In this document: in pieces, positions 28,601 through 52,600 of the stretch
Layout: each line of letters starts with the position of its first letter
Position numbering within the stretch: the first letter of the stretch is position 1
Assembly (NCBI GenBank): GCA_905178155.1
Contig: CAJINV010000010.1
Location: 932,425-996,424, forward strand
DNA: 64,000 nt
Source: Amoebophrya sp. A120
Lineage: Eukaryota > Protista > Dinoflagellata
Direction of reading: 5' to 3'
Made by a program: the position numbers and the translations under genes
The notes under the pieces: model-generated
Database searches by the model: none
Told to the model about the DNA's origin: nothing
What the model saw: only the letters and a program-made list of their open reading frames with translations

Positions 28601-31600
28601 TACTTTTGCTAAATCGCTTATATTTCCGTTCTGTTTTTCTAAGTTCGGCGCATGCGCATTTTGGTTTGTTCGCTGCATCAGGCCACGACAGAGCAGGCGT
28701 TTTCGTTTTCGAAACATCGATTATACCACCACCTTGCATTATTTTCATAAAAAAAAATCTGTCAGGTTCGAACTCCTGCAAATCTTCAAGATGAAGGACA
28801 AGACGACAGGGCAGGAGAAAACGATGGAGTCGCTTTTCTACAGCGAGACCCTTGTCCACAGTGCACGCGTGTGTGGCCACAAGACCAAAGCGAAGGTCGA
28901 TGAAGTTTCAACCTGGAAGCTGACTTTTGCAGAGGAGGTGAATCGAAAGAGGGCACGGCTTGCAGGTATCTATGTGACTTTTTGCTGCTTTTCCATCCAT
29001 GAAAGTCCTGATAGTGTCGTCTTTGAAAATTTGGACCTGGACGTGGAAACTACTCATGAATCGTGCTTAGTTTGATAATATGTCGCTGCGGATGACCTTT
29101 TTCAGTAATTTTGAATCAAAGTAGCATGCACCTCAAAATCAAAACAGAGGAAGAGGCCAAACTGCCCGAGGCGCAAAAGCCTGCAACCCGGGGAAGTAAA
29201 GCCGCAAACAAAAATCGCGGCGTTGGTGGGGCCGACGCAGTGCGGCTTGAGGAGCTTCTGGACTCGCATTTCCAGAGCGAAAAGATGATTGGGGACAACG
29301 CTTTGGAATGCGATCAATGCACTGCTGAAAATAATGGCCAGAAGGTGAAACAGGACGTAGTGCGCACTCTGAAGATCGGTAAACTGTCGCCCTACATCAA
29401 CATGGAGCTGATCCGCTACACCTTCGACCCGGTCACGCTCAACCGCATCAAATCCCAGGACCCGCTGAATTTTCCCGTGAAGAACTTGGATTTCACAAAA
29501 TACTTCGCAACGGAGGAGGAGCTGCAGGACATGCAGTATACAACCTGTACCACAGCAACAGCCAGCAGCCAAATCCCTGCATCTTCCTCAAACATCGCGG
29601 CCAGCAGCCCTGTATCAAATGTAAAAATGTCTGGGTCTGGAAGCGAGCAACTTGTGATGCTACCTTTGGACTCTACATAAAATCTGTATTGCATGAACAG
29701 CAAAAGAGTTGTAATTTGTGCTACTTACGCGGAAAGGGCATTTCTCATGCGGTATGAGCATCAGAAAGCCCTCGCAAAATCTCTGATGCTAGGGCATGCA
29801 TCACAGACCTCATGGGTCATGCAAAATCTGCATGACAAACTCCTGCATTCTTCCAGACCCAGACATTTTTGCAATCCATACCCTGGTGCGGTGGACCACC
29901 AACATCCGAAGTCGCAAGGAAAGTCTACCAGTCAGGTATTGTGAGGAAAAATCCCCGTTCCCCATATCAAAACGAAATTTCTGATGCTGGATTTGTGAAC
30001 ACAAATTCGAGCTGTCTTGCTGGAGAGCACTGAAGGCCCATATCAAGTGCGAGTAGCGAGGTTTTGGCTTAGGCACTTAGCATGAAAAACATCCGCGCGG
30101 TAGGCCCAACAGCATGACAAACCGTCTGCGCAATGCGGCGGAGCCTGCGGAATTCCCTCCTTGCAAGACAGACACGATTTGTGACCACAAATCAGCATCA
30201 CAAATTTCCAAAAATGTACCTTTTCCATATGGGGAGGGGGGATTTTTCCTTGCAATATCAGGACGGAGACCAGGACGGAGATCCGCAGATCAGACAGCGG
30301 GACAAGGAGGCCGACCGCCGCGCGAGTGGAAATGGCCATGCGCAAAGACCATCGGGTTGTTCCGCTGGCGGTTTGGATGCGATGAAGAGCAGAACGAAAA
30401 TGAAAAATCCGGCGCCAACATGTGGTCGTGGCCACAACGGGATAATTGGCAGTAGCAGTTCTTCGTCTTCTTCTGCGGCGCAAGGAGGCGGCCCGCCTTC
30501 TGCCGCGAGCAGTACTTCTAGCAGCAGACACCTTTACGACTTGGTCGGAATGCTGATGCATTTGGGTGGCAGTGCAGGTTCCGGGCACTACACGGCGACG
30601 CTGCTGATTGACCGGAAGATGCTCGGGTCGGAAGTGCTGACCAATCCTGTCTGCAGTGAGGTGCCACCAGCGGTACCTGCGGACCACGACTCGGAAGTTC
30701 ATCTGCAGGGAGTACAGCTAGATTGCTCTCCCGCGGGACGAGCAGACTCGAGTAAAAAAGACCCGGTAGTTCCTGTGAATGGAACCACGACCGCGACTCC
30801 TGGTCCCCCTACGGAAGAAGTGGTCACCAATTGTTCTAGCAAGTCAAAGATGAAAAAGGGAACAATAAACAAACGAAGTAAAAAGCTGAGCGAGAACCAC
30901 GAGGCGTCTTCCAAATCACCAGTCCGTGCAGCTCCCATATGAAATGCAAATATGTCTGGGTCTGGGAGATTGCTAGATTTGTCGTGCTAGTCTGGCATGA
31001 CTCAAGAATCTGTGATGCAAGGGCGCGAAGCGGTCCTCTTACCTATCATGCAAAAACGCAGTTTGCCATGCGCAACGTGCAACAACAACACATAGGAGCC
31101 CGAAAATTTGTCATGCTTGGCTGCGTATTGCAGTAGAACTCTCATTCACTATTTTGCATTATAAGTTTCCAGACTCAGACATATTTGCAATGTATATCCC
31201 AAAGTGCCAATCAACTACGAGCCGGACATGCAGTGGTATACGTTTAACGACGACGAGGTCACGGAGTTTGATGGGAAAACGTTCGAGCCGCCCGAACCTG
31301 CCGTCGGGCCAACTCCGCGACCGCCGGTCGTGGTAGAAGATGTCGCGGAGGAGGAGGCAGAGGCCAACCCGTCTCCTGGGCGGCAAGGTATACTTGCTTT
31401 CTCCTGTAGTGTATTCACAAAAATGCTGTTTCAAAATAAATACCGTATCAAAATAAATACAGTGATCCAAATTTGTAATAGCTCTTTTGTGAACCGGACG
31501 TGCCCACCGCACTGCCCGCAGTTTTGTTTATGCTTCGCGCTGAACAATCTCGGGGTCCATCGCATTAGAGGCCTGGCGGGCCATTGTGGCCGCGGCTTGG

Positions 31601-34600
31601 GCTTGCTCCGTCATGCCTCAACCTGCCTTCAAGGCGGGCCAAGCATGTCGTCTCCACGCCTGGAGCATGCAGTCAGTGGTCAACGCACGTTGCTAGTCGC
31701 AACTGCGTTGTGGGACGCCGGAACTGCAAGTAGCAGTACGGCGCCCCTGGCGGCCTCGTCCGGTTCCCAAACCGGGCGTGGGAAAAAACGCCAAAGTGGG
31801 GGTACCTTAGTACCCCTGGAGCGGGAGGCCCGTAAACGGGTCCCGACCCGGGTAGATCCTCGTGCAGGCCCCGACCTGCCGAGAAGAATCCCCGGAAGTG
31901 CCCGACTGGCACAGGACGTGTGGAAGTCCAACGTAGGCGTCTGACAAACGCCGGCAAAGGCTGACGGGGTCCTCCCTCCCCTCACCTGCGCCACTTAGGG
32001 TGAGCACAGCTCCCCGAAACCCCATTCCAGTGAGCCCCTACCCGCTCACACCGAGGCGTCTCTCCCTGTTGGAAGGGGAGGGGGCCTCAATGTCACTAGA
32101 GTCACGCACTTGGGTTAATCTCAAAACTGCTTCGCGCAACCAGGCGCGTGACTCAAAATCTCCACGTGTAAAAGCGCCCGGGCGCCGTGCGCCGCACGAA
32201 AAAACGGCAAGGTAACGTGGGGCATCACGCCCCACGGTGTGTGCCGCTCGCAAGAGCGGTTGTGTCTCCCCTCCGCGTAGGAGAGAAGCGTGGCGTCGAC
32301 AGGCACCACGCAACACGCGCGCGTGTGCCTCGAGCCACCAGCACACGTGTGCCTCGAAATCGCCACGCAGTGCGAGGTCACGCGCGCGCGTGCACCTCGA
32401 AACCCTAGCCGCGATGCGGCAAGGGAACGGACTACGAGATGCAGCCGCACCGTAGTAGCCGCGTGTTCGTTTATGGTTGAAAATCGATCGACAGGACGCT
32501 GCGCAACGCGATTCGCTGCCTCAATGTCGGTCGTCGCAAGGAAACTGTCGGTCGAGAGTTGGATGAGAATGAACTTCCGTACCTCAGAGACCGTTGCGCG
32601 ATACGTACGCGAGCCGTAAAGCCGCAAGGACCTCGACATGAATGGAGTGCGAAAATCGTACAACAAACGCACGTTCAAAAAATCGTGGGCAGTACAACCC
32701 ACGCCGATCCCTAGCATTAAGGAACGTCGTCCAGTAGATACTGATCGATCGTCGAACGACCATAGACACAAACCGCAGGCAAATAAAATTCACACAGGGC
32801 AGGAGCTTAAAGTACATTGCAAACCCACGCAGTAGCTAGCACTAGGACACTCTAGAGCGCGATAGTTTACACCAATTGCAGCAATTAAGCACACTACCCA
32901 GTAAGAGACTTTTGCTTACCCCTAGCGAACAAAGCAAGTGCAACCCCACAGCACAAAACAAACCCCAATGGCGCAAGCGTACACCTTCGGAGGCGGGTCC
33001 CCCGACCCGCTGAAACTTCAACTGGAGGTGCACCCGGACCTCTTCGAGGACACGCTAAAAGCGCGAGTGGCGGCAGCATCTGCGGGATGCGACCCAGAGC
33101 ACCTGGACGCTCGCTGGAAGCAGGCTCTGGCCACGAGTACAGGGCTAGACTGCATCGTCTCCGGCCTGGAGAGTGGCGAATTCCTGGAAATCGACTTGTG
33201 GGAAAACGCGCCGCACGCGCAGCTGCCGCTGTCGGAGCACACAGTCGCGCACTATGTGCGATCCATCGTGGCCCTCACGTTGGTATACGAAAAGTACAAC
33301 TCCGTCGAGTTCGACCGTTTACCCTCGGAAAAGCTCAGGAAGATGGCGGTTATGTACGGCCTACAATCCGGCGGGAACAAAGCTGCGAGGCTGAACACCC
33401 TCCAGCTCGCCGCAGAACAAGACCACTTGTACCAGTTCCCGCTGCCACTCTGCCCAGTCGTCACGGACGGCCTGACCATCCACGACATCACCGAAACGTC
33501 GCTCCAGGTGGACGGGACCCCGGTCCTCGGACAAGCGGCGGGACCCGCCCTGCACCCCATTGTCTACCCGAATGGAGATAACGCCGCGGCGTATCAGGCG
33601 ATCCAACAGGCGGCAGCAGCTGCAGTAGCGGCGCAACAACAGGCGGCAGCTGCAGCAGCGGCGCAACAGCAAGCAGCAGCTGCAGCAGCAGCGCAACAGC
33701 AGGCAGCGGCCGCACAACAGGCGGTGCAACAGCCCGCGGCGGCACAGGGCCCAGGACAGCAAGCAGCAGGTACAAGTACCCTGCTTCTAGAGGCCTGCCA
33801 CTCTCTCGGTCGAGGCAGGCTGGCCTTACAGTAAAACGCTGCAACTCTCTGGGAAAGTTGCAGGGATCGCAGCGCGCGCGCTGCTGCTAGCTATGCACAC
33901 AAAAGCGTCACCACGTATGCCTGCAATATGTCAACCCACAAAACTCACAGGTGGAGCCGCACAAGGTGCGGCAGGCGGGGCACCACCGCCCCCAGCGGCA
34001 CAAGCGCAAGTCATGGGAGCAGCGGCGGCTGCGGGACCCCCAGGCGGAGCAGCACAGGCACAAGCCGGAGGCGTAGGTAACAGCTAACGCTTCTTCGCGT
34101 AGCTAGCCATACGGTCGCTTTCATAGCCATGACATAGCCCCTAGCTAACGTATGACTAACAGCAATACAAACAACACACAGGTGCGCAAGCGCAGCAAGC
34201 AGGAGCGGCTCAGGCAGGAGCAGCAGGAGCACCCGCTGCCGCAGTCCAGGCAGCCGCGGCGGCCGGAGCAGGTATCTTGCTTGTCGTCGCCACAAAGGCG
34301 TCCTGCATGCCCTAAATCACCTAAAGTTCGCTTGTTGAGCACGCCTTCCCTGGAAAGGTGTTGACAGTACGCGAATAGAGGCAGGAGCAAACGCGTCCCG
34401 CGCTCTGAAATTGTGTCTCGCAATTATGAAACTAACCCAACACGACCACAGGAGCGGGACAACAGCAAGGGCCACAGGCACAACAGGCGCAAAACCCGGC
34501 GCAGCAGGCACAAGCTGGGGGAGCAGCAGGTACAGCCTCCACAAGTCTGTCTTTGCCCTTCTGCGTCTTTCAGAACTCTAGACCCGCCTAGAACACTAGA

Positions 34601-37600
34601 AGCGAAGACCCCCGCAAACATGTACTTTTGTGGGAATTCGAGCGGGGTTCCAGACCTGCCAAACCAAATCAAATCCCAAACACTCAAACCACAGGAGCGA
34701 ACGCCGCGGGACAACAAGGACAGCAGGCCCAGCCACCGCAGGCAGGTGCGCAAGCAGGTATAAAGCTACCTAGTGTTGCGCATAGTTCATGCCTCGAGAT
34801 CAATGCACGTATGAGCATGCCCTTGTTGAAGCTCCGTCGCGCCCATAGCGACCCACCACCAACTGCCAACAACCTAATAAAAATAACACACAGGTAACCT
34901 ACCCATCCCGCCAGCAGCGGCCGCGGCTGCGGGGGCACAGTTACTAATTGCAGGGCTACAACAGCAACCTCCACCGCAGCAGGCGCAGCTGGGAGCGCAA
35001 CAAGCTGGACAACAACAGGTCGTGCAACAGCAGCAAGCCCCCGGACAACAACAAGCCGGGGCGCAGCAGGGTGGACAGCAACAGCTAGCTGGACAACAGC
35101 AGGTCGCGCAACAGCAACAAGCTCCAGGACAGCAACAAGCTGGGGCACAGCAGGGTGGACAACAACAGCCACCCCCGGCCGGACAGCAAAACCAAGGTGG
35201 ACAGGCCCAGCAGCCACTGCTGCCGCCCGTGGGACAGCAGGCCCAGGCGCAGGGACAGCAGAACCAAGGTGGACAAGTCCAACAGCAGCTGCAGCCCCCC
35301 GCGGCGCAGCAGAACCAGGGACAGCAGAACCAGGCTGCCGGGGCACAGCAACAATACGTCGTGATCAACGGCACGGCATACCCGGTCGCGCAACAACCGC
35401 ATCAACCGCAGCGGCAACAGCAACAGGGAGTTCAGCAGTACGCAGTAGCGCACGCTCCACAGCAACAAGGGCTACCCCTGCCGAGGGTTGGAGGAACGCA
35501 ACCTCCGCTCCCACCGCCACAGCAGCAACGGCAGGCGCAAGCACAGGCAAACGTCTACGGTGCGTTCAACACAGGAGGGGCGCAGAACGCTGGCACCGGG
35601 GGAGTCCACAACTTCGAACGGTACGCGGCAACAGCCCCGCCGCCGACTAGCAACGCGCGAACCGACATGCACAACTTCCAAAATTGGAGCGAAGACGAGC
35701 GGGCTCTGTACTTCGACACTATGGTAAAACGGGCAACGGGAACCCAAACGGGCGTACAACTGCCGGAGGAGCCCATCCTGCAACCCGTCAACGCCCACTG
35801 GCACATGCGGGATGAAACGCTAAAACCTCTGCCACGCAACCGTAGGCCGGACGATGACGCCGGGGCCGACCCCGGTTACTGGGTCATCACCAGCCAGAAT
35901 AGACCGGTGAACTTGGAGTGCTTCCCGCTGGTCTGGATGTCCAGCCAGTACAAGAGACCGCAGTCGCTTCCGAGGGTGAGAGCGAAAAACGCCGACGGTA
36001 CGTATACCAACGGCAAACCGTGGAACGAAGGCAGAGTGTACGAAGTAGAGTACATCTCGGACTTGCGAGATTTGTTGGTGTGCCACAACGCAACCGGTGC
36101 ACAGGTGCAGGTGAACATGCAGAACATCACCTACATGTCGGAACACCTTTGGGTGGATACCGATACGGTATTGTACGAATACCTCAGCAAGTTGGATCCG
36201 GAAGCAAGGCGGGAAGCCAAAATGGCTGTCCTCTGGGCGATGGCGCTCGGAATCAGGGACGAGCTCCAGCTGGTCTTGCGGGCCCTCCAGGAGGAAGAAA
36301 GCCTCACCACTAAGGGGGTACACAACAAGGACACCCTGTACAAAAACACCCCGAAGCACTGGAACGGCGTCTCCTCGGACCTGGAATGGTACATCAAGAA
36401 TGGCAAGACAATCGGCATCACTGAAGGGCAGGCGAAGTCCCTCGTCTACGAGATGCGCCGCATCATCGACAAAAAGATGACGACCGCCACCCCCAACATC
36501 ACGCAGACGGACATCGAGCACGTACAAATCGGCCACATCTATGCCTTTTGGCAAAGATGCGTTGATGGAAATTTCGAAGTCAACGGGGTACAAAGCGCCC
36601 ACCTCCCGAAAGGGGCTAACTTTGTGGCGTCCTCCAGCCGAGCGGAGAAATTCCACCACGTGTGCATTGTCGCCACGGTGCTCAACATGTACGACACAGT
36701 CGCGGGCGCTACCGCCGACCTGACCGGACTACGGGACACCATAAACATCAAGTCGGATTATGAGTTTCAGATCCAGACTTTACCAACCGTCATCTACTCG
36801 TTAGCGTCGAAGCAGCCACCGAACAAGTCGCTGAACTTGGGACTGTCCGAGGGCCAAGGTGGCAACACCAGGACTTTCAAGTACGTGGTAGAAAAGGTCG
36901 CCACGGGTCGCTGCGCCGAGATCATCAAGACGAGACAGTTCTACTTCGCCTCGAACGGGCTCGGGGACGCCAATCCGAATCCGGACAACCTCACTAGAGC
37001 GCAGAAACGCGCGGCAACGCGCCGAGGCGAGGAGGTGGGTAATCCGCACCTGAAGCACCAACGCAAGGCGTCCAGCAGCGACGAACCGATGTTCTCCAAA
37101 AGCCCCACCTTCGACCTGCCCAAGCAGGCCGGCAGCTCCTCCTGGACGAAGAACACAAACCAGTCCAAGATGGGGAAGCTCGACATCACCACCGCCAAAT
37201 ACAAGAGCGACTGGAACGCCAAAGACCCGTACTTCCAACGTAAAATGAGCGCCCAAAAGTCAGTCATCCACGCGGGAAAAATGGCGATGGTCTGCTCGGC
37301 CGCCGGCCTGGTGGAAGAGCCGGGTATCGCGGCCTTGAACTGGCCGCATAGCGTGTGCCGGGATTTCCATATGCAAGGATCCTCCTGCAACGGCGGTTGC
37401 AGAAAGTGGCACGACATTCCCGAAGAGTACAGGACGGACACGCAGTCCTGGTGGCACATCTTGAACATCCAAAGCGCCATGGCCAACAACAACTCCAAGA
37501 ACCTTCAGCAGCTCCAGCCCTGCCTCCCCATGTCACCACCCGGGAACGGCGGGAAAGGCGGACAAGGAAAAGGCAAGGGAGGAAAAGGCAAGGGCAAGAA

Positions 37601-40600
37601 AGGCAAGGGCAAGAAGGGCAAGGATAAGCAGGGGAAAGCGGCTGAAAACGAAGACTGAAGTACTAGTATGGCCACCCGCGGCAGCGGAGACGTCAGGGAC
37701 TAAATAAATAGTCAACTAGAGCTAAAAATACCACGAGCCACATAACACCACACGTACAAACAAAACTCGCCACCAATTTTGAAAATGCACGCACGTCAAA
37801 TCTGAGCACGATAAGGTAGCGCCACTTCTGAACGAGATAGCAAGTCGCGACCCTCTAACGGAACAGCTACGAACTAAGCTAGGGATCGGAAAGAGTATGG
37901 CGTCGCTCCAAAAAATGGCGTCGGGGAGTTCCGTGCAGCACGAACCACTCAAGGTGTGGAAGTTTCCAAAATTGAGCATGCGTGCGGAACATGAGTCTCG
38001 CCCAGCAAGTAGCAAGGATGAGATCCCCAGAATAGAAATCGCGTGCGTACATAGATCGAAAAGCGTACAGACATAAATCGGATGAACGACCGCAACGTAC
38101 AAAATCGGAAGAGCATGCGAGTAGACATGAATAGGTCGGAGGTCGTGTGTGAGCAATAGCATGGAATTAGAAGGAGTAGTTTACGTAGTCGCGTAGTGCC
38201 CGCACCATGTTAACATCGGAAAAGAGTCTGCGTCCACAGAGCTCGTTGGAGGTCTGCGTCCACAATGAGGAACAACAGAGCCGCCACGTCATGCGCGCCC
38301 ACCTGCGGGGCGCGCGCGTGTACGAAACCTGGGCCGACGAAACTATGTCGTGCCTCAAGCCGACCTACTACAAGGTCAACCCAGATGGAACCATCACCGC
38401 CACGGAGCGGTACTTCAAAAAGCTAAATGTCGAGAGGCCGCCTGAGGGACAGGAGCGGACTTCCGACAAGCCCCTCTTCCCGGTCATCTCGGCCCAGAAA
38501 GTAGGGGACGCAAGCGCAGTCCTGCAGGCGTGGGACTACCTTGAAGACGCCCAGCGGACAGCTCACCCCTACTTCGCGGACGAGATGAGTCTACAGCGCA
38601 ATAGCGATCAACGCACGTTGCAGGATGGAAGTTGGGGCAAAGAGGAACTACAGCGGTCGGTGCTGGCGCACGTCGAACTCTACAAGCAAGTAGGGTTCGG
38701 CACAGCGGGAGCCATCGGGACACTGCTGCAGGCGGCGGAAACCGCCGACCTCATGGACGCCTATGAAAACGGCGACGACCCCCATGTAAAATCGCCAAAT
38801 AGCTGGACAGACTCGGATAGGGAGGATCGCTTCACGCGGCTCCCTTGGCAGGAGTACCCCCACCCCCCACGCAACTGGGACGGCAAGTTCCGCGGGGAAA
38901 TATGCGACCCAGATAGCAACGATCTGTGGACGCAGCACTCGGGCCACATGCACATCCGAGATCAGGTCTTCCACCGTCGTGCCCGCCTAGGCTGGCAAGC
39001 ATAAATCACAATACCAAATCACAGGACTGACTAGCATCTTACCTCACGAGTAGAGCACCCGTTAGATGTAAGACCCCGCAACATACGCACGACATCAGCA
39101 AGAGCAACTAATTAGACAACTAAGAGGACCGCCCAAACTCAACATGGCGCCAAAAAAGAAGCACAAGAAAAACGCGGGCGACCAGCAGGACGGGACCCAA
39201 GGCCGCTCCCATGGAGGCGGGTCTAGTGCCGGACACAAACACGTAATCCGCTACAAAGAACCGGCGGCAGGGTTCATAGGACCGGAAACATACCAGGACT
39301 ACGACTTGGAACGCATGTACTCATGCACGCAAATAGACGGGCTAGTCTTCGAGATGTTCCCGGAGGGGTTCTGTCGCTATCTGCCGCCCCATCATTACAA
39401 AGTCCTCCCAGATGGAACGATAGAGGCGACCAGAGCCTACATGAAAGCAAGAGGCATTCACATGGGCACCACCCGCAGCAACCGCCCGCGCCGTCGCTAC
39501 AGCGGGGTGGCCCTGTTCCCGCCCGAGCTCCGAGCCTTCGATAACGACCTAGCGGCCGAGAAAGAGGGGCCACAGCTGAACCTCCTCACGGTATAGGACT
39601 CGAGCTCTCCGCTAACTGTGCCAAAAGTGTTACTCCAATAGCATGCTAGAAAAGTCACTCCATGGACCGTGCGTATGCTGATAAACTAACAAAACAACTA
39701 AAACACAGGCTACGCACGTTAGGAAGATCCACCAGCAATTTGGTCGGCACAGCTACCAGGCGGAGCGCCGTCGCGTCGGCTTCCTTCGGGCCCAGAGAGA
39801 CGCGGTCCATGAAGCCTACAAGAAAACGCCGCGGGCACGCTACTACCACGACTACAGCTCAGACCCCAACACCGGAAGGCACTGGGGTCCCAAACCCACG
39901 GCGCTGGACATCGAAAACGTGCACAAGGAGCAGTTCTATAAATTTCCGAACTACCACATTCGGGTGATGATGCACGAGCAGGACAAAACCGGACCACTCT
40001 TCCCGGAGGACGAGTGGTCGCAGGAAGAGCTCGCGCGCCATTTGCAGAGCCACGTGAGGGCCCTGATTAAACCCCTGCGCGACCGTAGCACCTGTGAGTC
40101 ACTCCACCCCGACAACTACCGGAACTACATGGACCCCGTGGAGTATCATGGACTGCGAGACAAGACGGGGGGCCCATGGGACAAGGGCGATGGCGCGGCC
40201 AAGGACGAGCCGCGACTCCTGCATCGAGCGTGGGCACCCACACCAAAGGAGCAGGACGCACTGGCCTCGTACCCCTCGTACGGATTTGGGCAAACGGAGC
40301 TCGAGAAGTTTAACATGCGGGTCTCCTTCAGCCCATGCGCTGAACAGGCGGGGGTCAGCTGGCAAAGCATGAGATCCCGCATCCACATCACCTGCCTAGT
40401 CACCGCGTGCCGCATGCTCGAAAAGCAACAGGGTCAGCTCGGCGACGATGAACCAATGCTCCTACCCCTGGAGTTGCACGTGTCGAAATCCCCCGAGAAG
40501 AAGCCAACCTGGGGCTTCCCGGAGGGCTACGACTGAGGTATAAGCTAGACCAAGACCTACTTAGATACTGAGCAAATCACAACTCGAGCAATAACTCGCG

Positions 40601-43600
40601 CCAAGGAGTTAACCAATGATAAGCAGAAGTCGACAACCTAAAGTAAGAACGTAACGCGGGAGCGGCACAACCATGAGACACACGCTAGGAAGTAGCTTCT
40701 GACCCGAGAAAACAGAAAGCACATACTACCCTAGTAGTGCAGAACTGCAGCTGCGCAACATGCCAGAAGCGCGCGCCCGCCTCGCCTGTTCAATCACAAA
40801 AAGAAAGCAAGTTACTGGATCCGCACAAATCTGCCTTGAAATGAGTAACGGGTCAGGATCTTTCTTAGCTAAGTTCTGGTAGAAACTCGACGCCATAAGA
40901 CCACGAAAGCACAGCAGCGCACTAGACCAGAGGCACAAGTAGCAGATAAAGCACACCCCAGCCGCGCGCTCAACACAGCACAAGTATACAACAAACCCAC
41001 AGGGAACATAGAATGGGAAATCAAGTGAGTTGCTGCATGTGCTGGGAGGAGCAGCTCTGCTGCTTCCTCGCCATATTACCAAATGGACAAAAAGTCGCTC
41101 TACCGTACGACTCTGTGTGTATCCAAAAAGATGGACGCATTCGCACGATAGGACCAGGAAACATGGTCTGGAACACGGCGGGAAACACGGAGCCGCTAGA
41201 AAGCAAGAAGCCCGTCTTCCCCGTCGCGCGCCTCCGCGCAGAGCTCCTCATCGGCACACCGGGGGGATATGCCGAAGGCCATGCCATCCCGGACGCGGAC
41301 AAAAACCAGGCAACGGCGGAGATCACACAACTCGTCCGGGAGCGCCTGGCCAATGGAGAGCAGAAAGAGCATTACACCGCATCGCAAAAGCGGAACTACG
41401 ACGAGCTCAGGTGTAAATGCTTCGCATGTGCAAAAAGCATGGATGTGCATACCCATCGCCGAGACTAAATTGCAATGCAACAAAAACCAAACAGGTGCTA
41501 CATGGCCGACAGCGTCCGCCTGTGGACTAGCGCACAAATCCACACCCGCCTCGTGCTCTACCACCGCCTCACCAAGGGTCGTGACCTCACGGAAGGAAAA
41601 TACTTCCGGCCTCACGCGTTCCTCAAGGGGCTCGAGATGCGGCTGGAGGCCAACGTTAGTGGACTGCAGCACACAAGCTTCCAGCACGCGCTCACTGGCG
41701 AAACCAACCCCCACAGCGTGTATCCCGCGGGATACTGGAAGGACACAGTGGAGCACTTCCAGTTCGTCTCGCCCGATGCGATGAAACAGTGGTGCGAACA
41801 CGCCCGCGGGACCTGGGCCGCGACGCGGGACCTGGGCCTCCACCGGCTCATGATCCGCATCAAGCGTGAGCATAGCGACCACATCGCGCAGGACGGCCTG
41901 CAGCAATGGGGACCCAGGGAACACACCGGCCTCCGCATGCTCGCCGCGGGAGAAAAGTCCGCCACGTACATCCCATCCCCGGACCCCCTCCACAGCAAAA
42001 CCCGGTGGAGGGACCACGCTGAGGGGCCACACATGCCGAACGAGGTCCCGGGCTACAACTCCCACTGCCTCGCCTGCCGGCTCATGGCTTATAACCACTG
42101 CCCGACGCCCTGTGGACGTGAGGAGTGCACACACTGTGGTCGCTGTGTGGACTGCGACCACGGCTGGGACTAGTCAGAACGGACAGCCAAATGACTAGAA
42201 AAGCCACGCACTGAGCGACCCGGTAGCCTAGCAACAGAGGTAGCAACACCAACAGAGAGCACCACTAGAAACCACACAAGTGGCCCATATATAGTAAGCA
42301 GACGGGCGAGGTCGCTAATACGGCCCCCGTAGTGGAGGCTCGCTGAGTGTTCACCCCAGTAAACCATAGCGCCCAGCACACATATGCACGCACCATAGTA
42401 AAGACTCGTTATCGGTATAACAGCCAGCACCACTAGAGAAAAGAGCACGCGTAAAAACGGAAAAACAAGATGGACGCACGGGACGCCTCCGTTATACTCC
42501 CGCCACAGGGGGTAAACCCGCGCAACATGTACAAACCACCGCAACCACGAACGGCGTCTGCGCAAATTGTCCCGACAACGCGACAGACAAACGACACCGC
42601 CCTTACGAGGACCTTCACAACACTGCAGGCGGACCTGGAGGCGCAAGCCGTACAGACGAGCACACTGAGCACCCACGCGCAACTACATGAGGCCCTGCGA
42701 AGATACATCAAGGCCACCTGGCCAAACTTCGGGGACAGCGAGCCAGCAAACCTCAAGCAAGTGGAGCTGTTTTGCCTCGACAAGGTACAAAAACAGGAGC
42801 ACAGGAGCGCCGATGTAATCTTCACCCAGCTCCTGCACTTCATGATCAACCCGCCCCTCGATGAGGATGGACGGCAGCCGGTACTGCTCCAGAACGCCCC
42901 CGCATTTGCGCCCCTGGCATTCGAGAAAGCGAGGGAGAGAGTACAGAAGGCATGCTCAGCCACGAAGTGTCCGGTCACCAAAGCCTACCCGCTGTCACTC
43001 CACACACTGCGACAGGTGGCCTTTCCGGAACGGGCAGCGCTCATGCTGTGGTATCTAGTGGGATGCAGGTCAGCAAGCATCCAGGCCATCGAGCCGGGCG
43101 ACGTCAAAATCCACACCGCGCCAGGCACAAGAGTACCCGTCAGGGTGAGCGTCTTCATCCGGTCGGATAAAGTCTGCACGGCAACATCGCGCACGGTGCT
43201 GATAGGGTGCAACTGCTTCGACGACCCCACCTGCTGTCTGCTATGCGACAAAGAACACCACGACGCAATCGACAAGCTCAAGGACAGCCACGGCAAAACC
43301 TGGCTCCCCCAGCTCGCACACTACGGCCTGGGGATCACGGAACATAGCGTGAGAAGAGCGCACGCTCTCGAAGCGAGGAGACGCATGCAAAGCGGCAAGC
43401 ATTGCAACCTAGACCAGTTCCTCCGCGATAGGGGTTGGCAGCTTCGCTCTACCTTCGCAGACTACGCGTGCGACCTCCAGGACTTCGTCCACATAAAGTT
43501 CCCGCCCATCGGCGCCACGTGGTGGCCAGCGGACCCACTGGACGACTCCACCAGCTCAAAATCCATGGTCTTCAGAGACGTCAACAAAGTCACCAATATC

Positions 43601-46600
43601 ACCCGCGCAGAAAACATTGGCACGCTGGCCACCGCCCCCTCCAACGGCCTCCCGGTGGCCCGCTCCGCCAAACAGACACGAGCCCACGGCGGCCTGTCGC
43701 CAAAGCCACCAACCCCGAAGGTAGTTCGCAAGGCAACCGAGGGCGACAAAGTCAGCAAATACACCAGCCTCGCACGAGGAAAGCCGGCGCTCACCAGTAC
43801 ACTCCGGCAAAACAAGGAGGGAAAGCTAGTCCCCACGCTGCCAACCGTGGTCAAGAAAAGCTGGGAGGAACTAGCAGGCCACACCAAAGAGAAATATGTG
43901 TACCGACCCAACGACGCCCCAAAGGAACACCGCGAGGAGGCCTGGGCGGAACGACAACGGCGAGGGGTTGGAACGGCACAAGAACCCGCAAAGCGCAACA
44001 AAAACTACAAACCCTGGCACGCCCTACCCCTTCCGGAACGGGCAAAGCTGCGAGACGGGGCCGGAGCAAAACACCAGTCTCGCGAGAAGATTGAGTATTA
44101 CCTTCAGGACATAAATCGTGAACGGGTGGCAAGCCACCGCGACGCGATCTATAGGCAGCACCCGGATAAGTCCGGCTTCTACCGAGACAAACCGGATGCA
44201 GGCGAGCTCGAGCAGCTACAGCAGGCGGGGGCGCAGCCCCCTGCGGGACCTGCGTGACGACCCGCCGGCGCGCAAGGCGTCCGAACCCTGCGAATGGGGG
44301 AACTCAGGGCGTGACGTCCACTATCGAATGGGGAAGAGAGCTGGCACCATGCCGGCGGATCGAAAAAAGAGAAAATGATGAGCCCTTCTAGAATGTGAAC
44401 TGCGAAAGCTGTAAGACAACGCAGGAAGGGCAGCTCCACTGAGCGAATCGTCATGAGGCGACACGAGCCGGCACCGCGGCGGAAAGTGTTCGCGCTCCTC
44501 TAGAAAGAGCAGAGCTGAAGTTCCACTGAGATCACGCGAATCTCATGCAAAACTGGTCCTGAAGCAATCTGCCATACTTCCGCGAGATCAAGTGGGCCCA
44601 CGGTTCCAATCTCGGCGATCCTCCTGCCGCTAAGCTCTTAGTTCCGCCATCGATCAAGGTGGGCGCGAGTAAACCAAAACACTAACACGCTAAACACACA
44701 GACACCAACGAAACGCAGTCGATCCGTTAAGTCGATCTATTTAGCAGAAGCTAGATCCGAATGTGTCCAACGAAAGATAACGACATCTGATCTAAAAATG
44801 ATCTCAGGTACCGACCGACCGGGAGAGGCCAACCCGTCTCCTGGGCGGCAAGGTATACTTGCTTTCTCCTGTAGTGTATTCACAAAAATGCTGTTTCAAA
44901 ATAAATACCGTATCAAAATAAATACAGTGATCCAAATTTGTAATAGCTCTTTTGTGAACCGGACGTGCCCACCGCACTGCCCGCAGTTTTGTTTCGCCCT
45001 TAGATGCCAAACCCATGAGCCCGAAAAAACTGGAAGACCTCACCGCCGCCGAAGCGGCGGCGCCGGACACCAGCCAACAAGCAGCCATGCAACGCACAGC
45101 CTGGGAGATGCTACACGTGACAAGAGACTACGTACGAGCAGCCCGAATGGCGAGTAGTGTCACAGTCCCGAGCGACACCATCGCAAACATCAAGCAGATG
45201 AAGGCAAATCGGACGGCCTGGGTAGCCCGAGTCAAGGCGGCCATAGCCAAAATCCGGAAAATCGGAAAAGACACTAGGAAAGAAAACGCCGAGCGACTCA
45301 GCACAGCAGAGCCACACATCCAACAGGCACTAGGATGGGGCGCCACCAAACGCAACCTGGTCGCCCTTCAGCGGCTCATAGAGTGGTCACATCACAAAGA
45401 CAAAACCCTCCCAAGCCACCTATTCCGAGGGGTGCGCACGATTGGCAACGCAGATACGACGGGGGGAGTCTGGGACCTCGACCCCACAGTCACGGCCATC
45501 GACCCCCAAGACGTGCAAGACTTCCTCGATGCTGAGGCTACACTCCTCAGACTCCAGGACGACCTTCCGCTCACGTCCTCCTTCGCACCGGAGGTACTCC
45601 GGAAGCTCCTACAAGGCTGCAGGGAGATGGTGGAAAAGGGACTCTACAAGCCGATAGAAAGAAGAAATCTCAAAGCGCGACCCAGCCCGGCCTTCCCAAA
45701 AGTCGAGTTAGAGAAGATCCGCCAGATCATCGACTCCAGGGCGCAGAACGCGTGCAGTCGGCTAGTCGAAAAGGTGCAAATCAAAGGCACGCGCACGATC
45801 AGCGAGATCCTAGAGGCCTTTATGAGACCAATAGGGAGGGAGGACGCCCTCACCCTCCCCAGCAGCGTATCTGCAAAGGAAACCTGGCGGGATACGGCCG
45901 AGACCCTGGCCCAGGTAGCTGCGGAAAGGAGTGCCACACTCCCAAGCCAGCCCGGCTCGGAACCGCGCCAGCTCGAGCGGGCCCACATCCTTGAAGAGGT
46001 GAAACAGTGGAACGCACAGCTAGCAGACCACCAAGGGGGAGGGGTCATCCCGGAGATGGGCACGAAGGACTTCGAAAAGTACTACTACGCTTTCGGATGC
46101 CTCGACCCCAAACTCAACGGCATTGCATTCTTTGACCCGGACCAGCGGGCATGGCAGTGCGTCGAAAGCTACGTCCTTAACATGGGAAACACCCACTCGG
46201 TGCCAGGAGGTACACACAGGACCCACAGACATAGAGCCGCCTCCCCGGGCGGGGTAAAAGTACGGACATGCGCAACTCGCGAAAACATGTAAGCCACGCC
46301 TCACAAATCTAACCTCACCAAAAAACCAAACAGCCTGCCGCGTATCGGAAGCCATACGGACCATACACCAGGCGGGGGGCGGCGTGTCGAATCTGTATAT
46401 CGATGACGCCATGCTCTACGGCACCGACCGTGAGACGTTCAACCTCTGTCGGGACCTCTACCTCGCTGTCGTCGAAGCCCTAGGCATCCCGCTAAGCAAG
46501 AAAGCAGCGGGCAACCAAGCATCCTGCGATGACATTCCCGGAGGAACGCGCGACTTCGTGCGAGCGCTAGGAATACGGTATGTGTGGATACGGGACCGGT

Positions 46601-49600
46601 CGGGCCGCCCCGTCCGACTCTTCTCCGTAGTACCGCGCGACAAAGTAGCCTCCGCGCAGCGGGACTGCGATAAGATACTAGCGGCCCACAGCGAGAAGGG
46701 AGGCAGAATCCAGCAAAAGGACATCCAAAAACTCCTCGGCATGGCTCAGTACGTGATATGCAACACAAACCGAGCGGGGGCGGAATTCGTCCGCCATTTG
46801 TACCCATGGGCCTCGGACGACTACTTCCAGGCCAACATCACGTGCCGCAATCTGCGCAAGGCACTCGCTACGGCCGTAACCACTCTGAGGGCGCTGATCG
46901 AGCATCTGCCCCCCTACGAGCACATCTTCCGAGTGCAGAGGGTTAACTTCATGTATCTCGACGCTAGCGGCGCCAAGGCCCCGGACGCCCCGTGTCTCGC
47001 GGACCGGGGGCCTAAAGAGCCGCCACGACTCGGGGGCATACTCGTCACCGCGGATGGGAAGGTTAAGGCTTTCACCTACCCCCTGCCGGAAGAGCACGAA
47101 CTTGCCACGTACGATATAATGACGCTGGAAACGCTGACGGTGCGACTAGCCCAGTACCTCTACAGCGAGGACATGCGCGACGCACTCTCCGTGGTGTCAG
47201 TTGACAACGTGGTGGAACTCTTCGCGCTCGTGAAGCTTAGCTCCCGGCAAAAAAGAGTGTGCAACGTAGCAAACCGCGTCGCCGTCAAAAACCAGGAACT
47301 CGGGGCCCGATGCTGGTACCGGTACACCAATACCACCAGGAACCCGGCCGACGCCTTCAGCCGCAAGGACTACCTGCAGGCTGCGCTTAACTTCTGGCGC
47401 CCAGATGAGCTCGCGCACAAGAAAAACCACCCCGAGGTCCCGGGTTTCCTGGCAAAGCAGGCCAAACCCATCGACCCACACGAGATTTTCCCCGACCGCA
47501 CAAAGCTACCCTTTGACCCGGTCAGAGACACAACGGCCCAGGCTGCAAGGCACCGCACCTGGAAGGAGCGCTCTCCAGCACTCACAGGCCAGAACATTCT
47601 GGACCTGCCTGACCGGGCACTGGACATGCTCACGATGAGCACACAAGAAGAAGCCGCTGCCGCTCTCGGCAGTGGCGGGGCAAACTCGCGTCTTCCGGAC
47701 GCCTCGCGCGTAAAACGCCCCAGCGTGCAGGAAGCTGGCACCATGCCGGCGGATCGAAAAAAGAGAAAATGATGAGCCCTTCTAGAATGTAAACTGCGAA
47801 AGCTGTGAGACAACGCAGGAAGGGCAGCTCCACTGAGCGAATCGTCATGAGGCGACACGAGCCGGCACCGCGGCGGAAAGTGTTCGCGCTCCTCTAGAAA
47901 GAGCAGAGCTGAAGTTCCACTGAGATCACGCGAATCTCATGCAAAACTGGTCCTGAAGCAATCTGCCATACTTCCGCGAGATCAAGTGGGCCCACGGTTC
48001 CAATCTCGGCGATCCTCCTGCCGCTAAGCTCTTAGTTCCGCCATCGATCAAGGTGGGCGCGAGTAAACCAAAACACTAACACGCTAAACACACAGACACC
48101 AACGAAACGCAGTCGATCCGTTAAGTCGATCTATTTAGCAGAAGCTAGATCCGAATGTGTCCAACGAAAGATAACGACATCTGATCTAAAAATGATCTCA
48201 GGTACCGACCGACCGGGAGATGACGCGGACGAAGAGGACGATGGCGACGAGGAGTGGGTGTATCAAATGCAAACATGTCTGGGTCTGGGAGATTCCGAGA
48301 ATTGTCATGCTGGTCTGGCATGACTCTGAACTCTGTATTGTGCGGCCGCGAGGAGCTCCTACGTCCTGTCATGCAAAAACGCAGTTTCTAATGCGGAGCA
48401 CGCAACTCAGAACCATGCAAAAAACTTGTCATGCTTGGCAGCGCATTACAGTGAGCTTACTATTCCCTCTCTTGCGTCACAAGTTTCCAGACCCAGGCAT
48501 ATTTGCAATGCATAGGTTGCCGCCTGGAACAACGTCCCAGGCGAAAAAACAAGGCTCGAACAAGCGCACCGCAAAAGCGAAGGCGAGCGCCAAAGCTCGG
48601 CCAAAAAAGAAAGCGAAAACGGAGCCAAAAGCAAAGGGTGGTAGAACCGCTTCGAGTAGTGAAAACAACAACGGAGCGGATACTCATGGTGCAGGGGATG
48701 AACCAGTAGTACAGGCTAATGACACTATTATATCAAGTGCTGACCCCGAGTCCGAGTTGCTCAATAAGAAGAATTTGAACGACGCCCTCCCGATTGTGCC
48801 TCCAGACAGCAAATCTGAGCAGCGCTTCCAGAACAGTCAGGTCTACATGTTGATCTACAAGCGCAAGGACCACCGGTTTTCGTACGCGGATGCGCAGAAA
48901 ATGGCGGAAGACTTGAACGCCAAGAAGCTTGAGATCCGCGAGCACATTGCGTCGATGATCGGCAAGCCGCTACCTGCGGTTGGCGGGGTAAAGCCGCAGC
49001 TTCCAGCGGGTTGTTCTATTGTGCCGTCGGCGCCGGCGGTAATCAACAGCACGGCGGGTACTAGTTGTAGCACGACTAATATCGGACCGCCGCCAGTAGC
49101 ACCCCTAGATGCTGGAGAGGCAGCACAACTACTAGCAGCAAATGGCTGCACAGTGCCCCCACCTTGCTCACCCAATAAAAAACTTGACGATGAACCAGAG
49201 CCCGCAGCAGCAATCGAGCTTTGCAGCAGCGAGGAAAGCAGTCAGGTCGCGGTGGCGGGGAGTAGCAGCGAGAATGAAGGCGCTGCGGAAGTACTAGCTC
49301 AAGGACCGCCGGAAGAACTCGCCCAAAATGCTGGATCAGCAATAATTGCTCCCACTACAACAGCCCACGCTCCTGCCAACGATGACGCCTCTACCGCCGA
49401 TGAGGCAAGCGGAAGTCCGGACGGGATGAAGAAGGAGAATGTAATTAACGGGGAACAAGACGAGGGAGGTGCCGCTGCAATGGACGTCGATGATCCACCT
49501 CCATCAGCAGCCGTGAACAAAAGTGCCAATCTAGGTGCGTCTGCCAATGACGAAGACACGTCAAAAAATCAGATTGTCTCACGACTGAAAGAGGCACAAG

Positions 49601-52600
49601 CAGAACTGAATCTGAACTACAGGCCTCCCTCTCGGAGCGCCCCTGGGACGAGCCATGTCCCCACCGGACTGACAGCCGCTAACTTCGGCACGGTCAGCAA
49701 TTCGTCTTCTTTGATGCCACCTCCCGCTCCGAAGCCGACGCCGCTTCGTGGTTCCAACTTGGGCGGCGGGCCCACGACGCCAATAAATCTGACCGGTGAA
49801 GACCACGAAGACGCGGAACTGCAGCGGGTGCTGCTGGAAAGCCAGAACCCAATTTACATGGGCGGCGGGGATGGAGGCGGGCTGATTGGAAGCACTTCTA
49901 ACACTGGCGCCGCGACATCAGATCTACTGCGCGGTAACACGATGATGAACAGCGGCTGTATAGGTGCAGCAGGAGCAGCAACGTCATCACTTCTCGGCTT
50001 GAACACCTATGGAAACACGCCGCCTCCCGGAGCAGTTGCTCCTCCAGCCGCTGGGTTATCATCAATCTCGTGCGCCTTCCAAACCGCAGCGGAAGTTTTA
50101 GCGGCTCCATCCGAGGCCACGGACGAGCGGAAGGTTGTAGAAGACAGCATCTTGCTGCGCGACGAGGCACTTGTGTTGCTGGAAATAGATGAAGGACAAC
50201 AGGATGTCGAGCTGCCAGTTGCTGTTGACGCAGAAAAGGATGAGGGTGGCCATATAACACAAGACGCTCCTTTGACAACGACTTCTACGGAGCAAGTACT
50301 GGAACAGCCTTCCAGGAATTCCAGCCATGACGCTATGGTGCGCTCCTTTTGGAAAACGATGCCGGCCGCGTGGATCTGGAACTACTGCGACGCCCAGTTT
50401 TCGGTCTCGCACAAGCGCACGGCCGGCGCCAAGGCCATGCAGCAGGAGATCGACCAGCTTGCGGAGAACCGACACCAGGACTGGGCGAAAGTGAGCGAGA
50501 AGCTGACAACCTGGAATCCGGAGTGGATGGGGACCGTCGCGCGAGAGCATTTGCTTACCGAAGTGGAGCGATTGCAGAGTGCAGCTGCGGTCGATGCGGC
50601 GGGAGGCGGGGGCGAGGAAAAGGAGTCAGAAGAAGCGGGTGCGGAGGAGGAACGGGCTGTTGCACTTCTGCCGGGTCAAGACAATGAGGTCGATGTTGGT
50701 CCAGCTGTCGCAAGTGCGGACGCAATTCCGGAAGCACAGAAAACAGCGACAGAAAGAAGAAGAAAAACACCAGCTGCACAAACACTCAACCCCGCCAGCG
50801 CGCCTGCAAATCCTACGCCAGGAAAAAACAAGACTGACGACGGGACGAAGGGCAAAGAGAAGCAAGAAAAACTTCTCCCGGCTGGTACTGAAGAAAGCAG
50901 CAGCAGCAGTAGCAGCAGCAGTGCCTTGTCCCCTTCATGTGCTTCTCCTGAGGTGGAGGAAGGAGGAAAAGATGATACCGGCATCAAAAAGAAAGATAAT
51001 GATGAACCATATGGAGATGAAGATGATAAAAAAGCGACAAGCAAAAATGGGACCAGCAGCAGCTCGTCTTTTCGTCTGCCAGAACTGGACGATGGCAACA
51101 ATCCCTCTAAAAACAAACAACAAAATTCCGCCGAGCCAGACCCCAAGCGACGAAGATTGTCTACTGCAAATGGAGCAGACTTGTCAAATGGTGGCGGTGG
51201 TGATGAAAACAGGGCACTGCTGGTGGCAAATGAGAAAGAGCCAGCAGCGAGCTGTAACGTCGTCGTTTCAACAGAATCTTCTCGTCTTCCAGAACTCGCA
51301 GTTGTAGCGCAGCAACCAGTTCCGCCTGACAGCGCGCTTGTCTTCATTCGCACGGAGTTTTGGAGATTGTGGTGCGAGGCCAAAGACGTGGAAAAGGAGC
51401 AGGAAGTGCTGCGGCAAACCAAACCGGACAGCACTATCCGCACCGGGCGGTTACTTCGCCTGCACCGAGAGTGGCGTCAGCACTACCGCACCAGCATGCG
51501 TCAGGTGCAACTTCCGAACGGGAAGCTGGATCCCTTCGCGGTGTGGGGCGGGCAGCTAAAAGTCGTACCGTTCAGCGTCGCGCGCGTCGTCCTGGGGCGG
51601 ATATTCCCGTTCGCGGAAGAGGCGCTGAAGAGCAGGTCCTGCAAGGAACTACATCAAAATTCCAGTACAATGCGCGGGAACCACCTCGAGGTGAAACCAG
51701 AGGCCCTTGTTTCAGCGGATCCGGACGCGGAAGAGGATTTGGATTTGCTTAACTACAATCCGTATTTCTTCGTTCACGAGTCCGTTTGCCTCGAAACGGC
51801 GACGTGGATCTTCCGTGCGTTAGAGCATCAGTGGCTGCGGGGGCGGAGCGTGCGGGAAGTAGTGGAGGGGAGACTCGGCAGCGGCGAGGAGTTTCGGAAC
51901 GGCGACTTGTACAAACGCTTGGACGCAATTGAGGATGAAGATGAGCGCAAGAAACAACTTCTAGAATACATTTACATCAAGCAAGCAGCCTACAAGGAAC
52001 ACTTCGAAAATCGATTCAAGTCCCAAAACAAGACGGCAGCAGCCAGAAAACAAAATATCGCTGCCGGGCCACCAGGTGCAGCAGCAGCAGCAGCAGGAAC
52101 AGCCGGTGACGCAGCCGTTCTTGCGGCACAGCGTGAAAATCAAACTAGTCACGAATTTTTCGACTGCATGAAGTTCCTGCACGAGCTGTGCAGTCTGCGG
52201 CAGCAACATCCATCGTCTACCGAGGACTTGCAGAAGGCCGTTCACGACAAACTGATCGAGGAACTGAAAATGGACAGTGACGTACGGTGCCCGTGTAAGG
52301 GCTCGGGGAAGTCGGGGCAACCGCTATCATGGATCGAGCCGCGGATTCCGGCCGTCGTCGTTCCCCGGGACCCGTTTAAGCGATTCGTGATGGCTTTCAA
52401 GAAGCGCCAACAGGCGGCGTGCCGGGTCGTCGGGGTTGCGCAAGTCGAAAGCGTGCCCTTTCTCGTCCAGAATGCGACCAGGAAAGTTTGCGAAGTCTGT
52501 GTGCAGACGCACGCACAGGAGGATGTCGAACTGAAGGAGGAGAACGACCAGAAGCGGCAGGCTTTGGACATCTTGCAGTTTGTGAATAACGGCCAGATTC

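Follow-up and report, generated by a model that had tools for sequence, protein, structure and literature searches.

What becomes of a coding exon when a complete retrotransposon lands in it? The question is raised by a 64,000-nt stretch of Amoebophrya sp. A120 DNA (contig CAJINV010000010.1, positions 932,425 to 996,424; hereafter the window, whose own coordinates are used throughout, all features being on the + strand), in which a tyrosine-recombinase (YR) retrotransposon interrupts an exon of a ubiquitin-protease (USP) gene, in sense orientation to that gene, in an Amoebophrya-type, probably marine parasitic, dinoflagellate host. Upstream host open reading frames (ORFs) match Pfam UCH (E 5e-8 and 7e-5), and the motifs WYTFNDD and YMLIYKR, which we take to be USP end motifs, lie on either side of the insertion. 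The first is in the 5' part of the interrupted exon (31197..31358, ..WYTFNDD..EEEA); the second is in a long downstream exon (48518..54076), beyond the 3' part of the interrupted one (48221..48258, DDADEE..EEWV). Counted with one copy of its trinucleotide core the element measures 16,859 nt. We found that the host transcript loses 16,814 nt of it as a giant GT-AG intron (31388..48201) and keeps a 45-nt footprint, and we regard the removal of the complete element from host mRNA by splicing at this locus as very nearly certain.

The preliminary description, made from the letters alone, had proposed the splice sites, the repeats and the arithmetic of 16,814 nt removed and 45 nt kept, and all of these were found in the sequence, with a donor CAAG/GTATAC at 31387/31388 and an acceptor TCTCAG/GTACC at 48201/48202. 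It had also predicted the joint 31387/48202, which was recovered in contigs of two RNA-like samples, X3 and X6, and seen 0 times in the DNA runs X1 and X2. Five of the eleven listed sequencing runs were compared (X1, X2, X3, X6 and X9), with the giant joint sought over 31198-48258; X3 and X6 are RNA by an automated guess and are two samples of one study, while X1 and X2, of unrecorded kind, behave as DNA. The runs were compared as contigs, from which rare forms have been dropped and some records filtered, and from which splicing efficiency is not readable. The X6 contig carried the joint as 31385/48200 (shifting the cut by +2 gives 31387/48202), skipping 16,814 nt with GT..AG ends, 59 letters on the short side and a depth of 5.5. 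In X3 one contig ended 19 letters past 31387, breaking exactly after the core, and the next started with 11 letters of the left-end repeat before 48202, so that the two overlapped by 30 letters across the joint; no branching contig was present among the 6 X3 records. Furthermore, no contig read from the left-end repeat into the element, the listed pieces explaining all of the first- and last-bin depth in X3 and X6; in contigs so thinned this does not show that such a form is absent. The element interior was nearly uncovered in the RNA-like runs, which we do not take as silence, and the raw RNA run X9 matched only a terminal-inverted-repeat (TIR) sequence, not this locus.

Two further joints indicated what kind of molecule these contigs represent. 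Non-canonical TIR-type introns (introners) flank the insertion on the left (30933..31196) and on the right (48259..48517, 259 nt, not a multiple of three). An X3 contig joined 30932 to 31197 and contigs of both X3 and X6 joined 48258 to 48518, whereas an X1 contig ran unbroken from 30231 to 30960, into the left intron; X3 and X6 therefore behave as spliced mRNA. Contigs of both samples covered the two parts of the interrupted exon, and the downstream exon was covered over 48518-49500, where the stretch compared ended.

We then considered what the splicing leaves in the message. The 5' half of the footprint (31362..31387, 26 nt) and the 3' half (48202..48220, 19 nt with the core) are both retained in the spliced contigs, and the donor score, 10.2, lies inside the spread found for the element's internal introns. 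Across the joint the frame runs ..EEEA-EANPSPGRQGTDRPG-DDADEE, adding 15 residues to the host protein, and the reconstructed mRNA had 0 stops over 30258-54076 once the element and both TIR introns were removed. When the right TIR intron was kept, stops appeared in every frame. The earlier claim that the footprint is in frame with both host flanks and the long downstream exon thus stood only after removal of both TIR introns and needed one correction, as that exon starts at 48518 and not at the element end. No second 45-nt footprint was found elsewhere in the window.

The geometry of the element ends suggests how such an intron could arise. Repeat A1 (31359..31529) is the same as A2 (44824..44994) at 171/171 nt, and the 488-nt repeats B1 (44339..44826) and B2 (47733..48220, with the acceptor AG at 48200-48201) differ by 2 mismatches; this near-identity points to a recent insertion. 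The trinucleotide AGA is present at all three joints, at the start of A1 (31359-31361), where B1 ends and A2 begins (44824-44826) and at the end of B2 (48218-48220). With the element removed and one core left, the host frame continues through the empty site as EEEADDADEE; there is no target duplication, only one trinucleotide common to the circle joint and the target, and trinucleotide cores at DIRS joints have been described (PMC7192593). On the DIRS model, a circular copy would carry the AGA core at its B/A joint, and the recombinase would cross this joint with a matching host trinucleotide without duplicating bases. The B/A joint lies inside a 45-nt acceptor-to-donor unit, which integration would split, placing the donor half on the left and the acceptor half on the right, so that insertion would make the element an intron by geometry. 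The RNA-like contigs show that the host spliceosome links 31387 with 48202. The footprint, a multiple of three, would fall in a protease loop that is acidic and of low complexity, and the enzyme would presumably still work. A hairpin across the B1/A2 joint was not significant (z -0.94).

The same unit is present within the element, where the B1/A2 joint forms a potential mini-exon (44808..44852) consisting of acceptor, 45 nt and donor around the attachment site. The long intron may leave in two steps, with re-splicing at B1, whose acceptor is directly followed by GTAC. The preliminary description had proposed such two-step splicing. On paper the frame is indeed kept, but the joints 31387/44808 and 44852/48202 were absent in X3 and X6, no RNA-like contig extended over 44808-44852, and none of the 13 joints listed used 44808 or 44852. 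The GTAC motif follows the B acceptor at both copies (44806-44812 and 48200-48206), and a splice from A1 to B1 would restore the donor-like sequence AAG/GTAC. It is thus a possible recursive splice point after the B1 acceptor; the motif is also kept in the mature mRNA.

Could the two sites lie at the ends by chance? A splice profile was trained on the eight predicted internal introns of the element, with a branch rule that fits only 5/8 of them. Of the GT sites, 9/689 scored at least as high as the A donor, and 10/1248 AG sites passed the B acceptor score together with the branch rule. The chance of finding both sites at the ends was ~2e-4, or ~6e-5 when a footprint divisible by three was also required (a factor of 1/3), with windows and rule chosen post hoc. 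We consider it fairly probable that the end-proximal donor and acceptor have been kept by selection for tolerable insertions into exons on the sense strand. Our preferred reading is that the element is spliced through a donor of its own, 26 nt inside its left end, and an acceptor of its own, 19 nt inside its right end, both likely under selection, and on balance this is probably correct. The preliminary interpretation was supported in part: the element is spliced out at this locus, but that it is built for this was not borne out by one spliced copy and by sites with a rival use in reverse transcriptase (RT) expression.

Several findings weigh against this preferred reading. Only one spliced copy was seen, and no second footprint-bearing host transcript was found in X3 (6 records) or in X6 (where no end-bin depth was left). 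A second copy, seen as an X2 loose end before 31362, has AGT in place of AGA at the end of its left flank, which indicates that the core is not strict. No related loci were found in viral contigs or metagenome contigs, and no relative's termini were readable. Both RNA-like samples come from one study, their RNA status is a guess, and they give no efficiency. The footprint had been described as free of stops in every forward frame, which is true of the sequence and unremarkable, as the same held for 44% of footprint shuffles and 39% of 45-mers from the element; we therefore give it little weight, although it is still needed for masking in any phase, and at a chance rate of 39-44% we rejected it as evidence of design. 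Finally, gag exon 1, the mini-exon and the stretch from 45004 through the RT join into a single open reading frame (1,163 aa), so that the sites may have a second role.

This last point leads to the first alternative, in which the B acceptor and the A donor serve the element's own RT mRNA, and host splicing is real but accidental and was seen because the survivor happened to be in frame. The sites could define a 45-nt exon spliced in after gag exon 1 and ahead of RT; alternatively, they could serve as a leader-acceptor and a 5' untranslated region intron. The element has eight predicted GT-AG introns of its own, two of them independently supported, the A donor shares phase 1 with all five gag donors, and a single spliced insertion is what such a by-product would show. 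However, the acceptor that the fusion needs, at 45003, scores -5.1 on the element profile and has no branch motif, and the RT can start at an ATG of its own (45015), near the aligned position at which an AT5.2 relative begins with Met, so no gag fusion is needed. No contig carried 44852/45004 or a gag/44808 joint, though the element was nearly uncovered in these runs. Even under this explanation, the attachment site of a 16.9-kb element would have to fall within a single 45-nt unit. We consider it unlikely as the full account; selection for masking and use of the sites for RT are not exclusive and can both hold.

A permissive host is a second alternative, in which flexible splicing would remove almost any exon insertion and the sites are chance cryptic sites at one locus. 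The transposons Ds1, Tc1 and 412 are said to be spliced from exons, classic cases that count for it, and TIR introns abound in the window. Furthermore, non-canonical introns make up the majority in Amoebophrya A25 and A120 (>60%; PMC7789003, section 10). The joint at this locus, in contrast, is canonical GT-AG with a donor fitting the element's own consensus, the joint probability of the two end positions is ~2e-4, and over 16.8 kb three in-phase acceptors that score no lower (34893 and 39708, plus 44807 in the 45-nt register) are passed over, which makes this explanation very improbable. An artefact, with RNA from cells lacking the element in this gene (the assembly being wrong, or the allele empty or mended), is scarcely credible: no single contig covers the entire stretch and the runs are contigs only, but the transcript contigs hold 45 nt of element at exactly this host position, so an empty allele could not be their source, and of the 13 joints listed none from the DNA runs is the splice joint or that of an empty site.

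Selection on the two splice sites, as we prefer to read them, raises the question of whether the property extends to other copies. In X1 the exact pieces had depths of 19-23 and a version 95-97% alike had depths of 55-95, an excess suggesting roughly 3-4 further copies and hence about five in total, although depth is not a copy number. The 30-nt left flank of the second copy has 24 purines and no stop; it is one loose end among those listed, with 41 further loose ends outside that view. Such a flank occurred in 1.7% of sense coding windows versus 0.2% of non-coding and 0.01% of antisense ones, making it ~8x likelier in sense coding than in non-coding sequence and ~170x likelier than in antisense, for this window and post hoc. 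It therefore looks like sense coding sequence, and could be another element's ORF. From these data we tentatively propose, as a possibility somewhat short of an even chance, a clade of giant YR elements whose circle joint lies in a 45-nt unit, so that sense insertion into an exon in any phase would yield a canonical intron plus 15 residues, with exons as a safe harbour and maybe recursive splicing at B1. A family-wide splicing strategy is likely but unproven. The masking of insertions across the genome that had been suggested was not borne out by one spliced copy, few copies in all and one 30-nt second flank.

The preliminary description had further suggested that this behaviour was new for DIRS-order elements, a claim that proved too strong. 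A survey of introners reports long-terminal-repeat (LTR), non-LTR, Crypton, helitron and TIR introners, with autonomous Copia copies in its text (PMC12130899), and its Dataset S2 assigns to LTR/DIRS the families Polarella glacialis fam3 and fam5 and Lasiodiplodia mahajangana fam3. These families resemble the element in their DIRS-order label and in creating introns in host genes, and 2/3 are from a dinoflagellate; their consensus introns, however, are ~150-410 nt long and they have 45-1,709 copies (PMC12130899). Polarella fam3 ('VIPER/Ngaro-like') is listed there as 'carry 5', co-opt 3'', Lasiodiplodia fam3 as 'co-opt both', and Polarella fam5 consists mostly of solo repeats with a 5-bp target-site duplication (TSD). 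In the present case, by contrast, the entire autonomous element is the intron, it supplies both sites and its copies are few. No Amoebophrya family with DIRS as its final class was present in the part of Dataset S2 covered, which includes few Amoebophrya and 28/44 'carry both' rows. The autonomous Copia introner of Panicum virgatum likewise is a full-length retrotransposon acting as an intron, but it is an integrase-type LTR element of ~7.6 kb with a TSD, and its splice sites are co-opted and mostly non-canonical (PMC12130899). An Aureococcus introner has both splice sites internal and a footprint that is a multiple of three and adds four amino acids to the protein, but it is short, non-autonomous and DNA-type, and its footprint is 12 nt as against 45 nt (PMC9860276). 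PMC3783388 does not mention introns. In the open literature covered, which includes parts of PMC11282704 and of bioRxiv 10.1101/2020.10.14.339549, we came across no report of a full-length YR retrotransposon in which splice sites lie on both sides of the attachment site; the published Polarella and kangaroo papers fall outside this scope.

The splicing at this locus is unusual in size and geometry, and the element is a retro-introner. It captures the birth of an intron from a complete, apparently mobile retrotransposon, and the geometric rule, by which the recombination core lies between the two splice sites, predicts the outcome of every new insertion. Introner screens mostly yield short, non-autonomous elements with an obscure mobilising machinery, whereas this one carries its own. 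The genome is compact and its introns measure a few hundred bases, and yet a canonical intron of 16.8 kb is removed past many internal splice sites; analyses confined to introns of 40-1,000 nt would miss it. U1 snRNA was reported as undetected in the Amoebophrya lineage (PMC7789003), so that long-range or recursive splicing is directly testable there.

As to its place among YR retrotransposons, the element is, judging by the ESM Atlas features, motifs and relatives of its YR and RT, an intact member of the DIRS order (Ngaro, VIPER/TATE and PAT/kangaroo), with which it shares A1-B1-A2-B2 repeats, a gag-like gene, YR, RT/RNase H and a trinucleotide core. Split-repeat features of YR elements are described in PMC4157794, PMC6681497, PMC8547959 and PMC7192593. 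Like VIPER/TATE, as described there, the element has the order gag, YR, RT/RNase H and no methyltransferase, but VIPER has B1, A2 and B2 at its 3' end, whereas here the RT lies between A2 and B2. Ngaro elements have the order gag, RT/RNase H, YR and the plan A1-[ORFs]-B1A2B2 with the repeats at the 3' end, in contrast to B1A2 between YR and RT/RNase H here, and the Cafeteria Ngaros are ~6 kb as against 16.9 kb. Three extra ORFs, eight predicted spliceosomal introns and splice sites bracketing the attachment site further set the element apart from the DIRS-order elements described. A PAT-like methyltransferase after the RNase H was sought by motif in the tails of 26 long relatives, none of which had one, and in the 130-aa tail of the RT in the window, where none was seen by eye and Pfam gave no match. 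By its arrangement the element therefore appears to fit cleanly neither PAT (no methyltransferase) nor Ngaro (gene order) nor VIPER (repeat position).

The genes run in the order A1, gag-like, ORFs X, Y and Z, YR, B1A2, RT/RNase H, B2, and all are open frames once the predicted introns are removed. The eight introns are GT-AG with the common pattern AG/GTAYA ... ACAG. The gag-like gene (32968..37658), so labelled by position only, has six exons and becomes a single open frame of ~1,307 aa after removal of five phase-1 introns (33770-33950, 34077-34181, 34272-34451, 34530-34694 and 34758-34893). One X2 DNA contig, from another copy, lacked the last of these exactly (24 letters on the short side), which hints that spliced RNA had been copied. 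ORF X (38207..39004), ORF Y (39144..40536, 424 aa spliced, predicted intron 39591-39708) and ORF Z (41013..42173, 358 aa spliced, predicted intron 41411-41494) are of unassigned function. X and Y are paralogous (32.5% identity over 83 aa, E 9e-7; motif YYKVNPDGTI / HYKVLPDGTI), and Z is weakly like X (E 0.01).

The YR gene (42470..44257) scored 0.97-0.98 to Phage_integrase clusters of the ESM Atlas, with an Atlas recognition of 3419 for the Phage_integrase feature; it carries R..HSVR..GW..Y motifs and its product is 35% identical to AT5.2 protein P0003. No YR homologue was found by word-based search and no PDB match by sequence, and its single-sequence fold (pLDDT 39.5) was not used. The RT/RNase H gene (45015..47772, 877 aa) scored 0.92-0.94 to RVT_1/RT_RNaseH clusters and carries YIDD and RNase H motifs; its intron (46210-46333) was confirmed by the spliced frame, which matches AT5.2 P0003 ungapped across the joint. 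A direct Pfam scan of the element ORFs, YR and gag-like included, gave no relevant match, and an Rfam scan of the element gave none, indicating no group I/II or other known RNA. RT relatives numbered 71 at E<=0.001, and among 27 aligned members RVT_1 was matched by 8 and RT_RNaseH by 3; the family profile matched retroviral RT weakly (E ~0.005). The nearest named relatives were from Amoebophrya sp. A120 (73% and 65%), AT5.2 (44-46%) and A25 (34%), which makes an Amoebophrya host likely. A clade of ~70 divergent RT/RNase H proteins (P0005-P0072), with A25 and AT5.2 members, is largely invisible to Pfam, and one relative is labelled as a protein of a SAR202 bacterial metagenome-assembled genome, possibly a binning error.

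Smaller features were noted in and around these genes. A four-codon upstream ORF (45004-45018) ends in a TGA overlapping the ATG of the RT gene (ATGA), repeat B2 overlaps the final 13 codons of that gene (47733-47772), and two AATAAA hexamers lie in repeat A shortly 3' of the donor (31435-31457, and 44900-44922 in A2).

The TIR-type introns next to the retrotransposon belong to the Amoebophrya introner elements (PMC7789003), which occur in the same type of host and, at this locus, in the same exon, with two of them flanking the insertion. They are ~260-nt hairpins with non-canonical ends, whereas the retrotransposon forms a canonical GT-AG intron that is ~60x longer. The 260-nt TIR family has ~18-21 copies in the window, spanning 554-60802 in both orientations. 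The two copies shown to be spliced as non-canonical introns have joints that take out bases beyond the TIRs.

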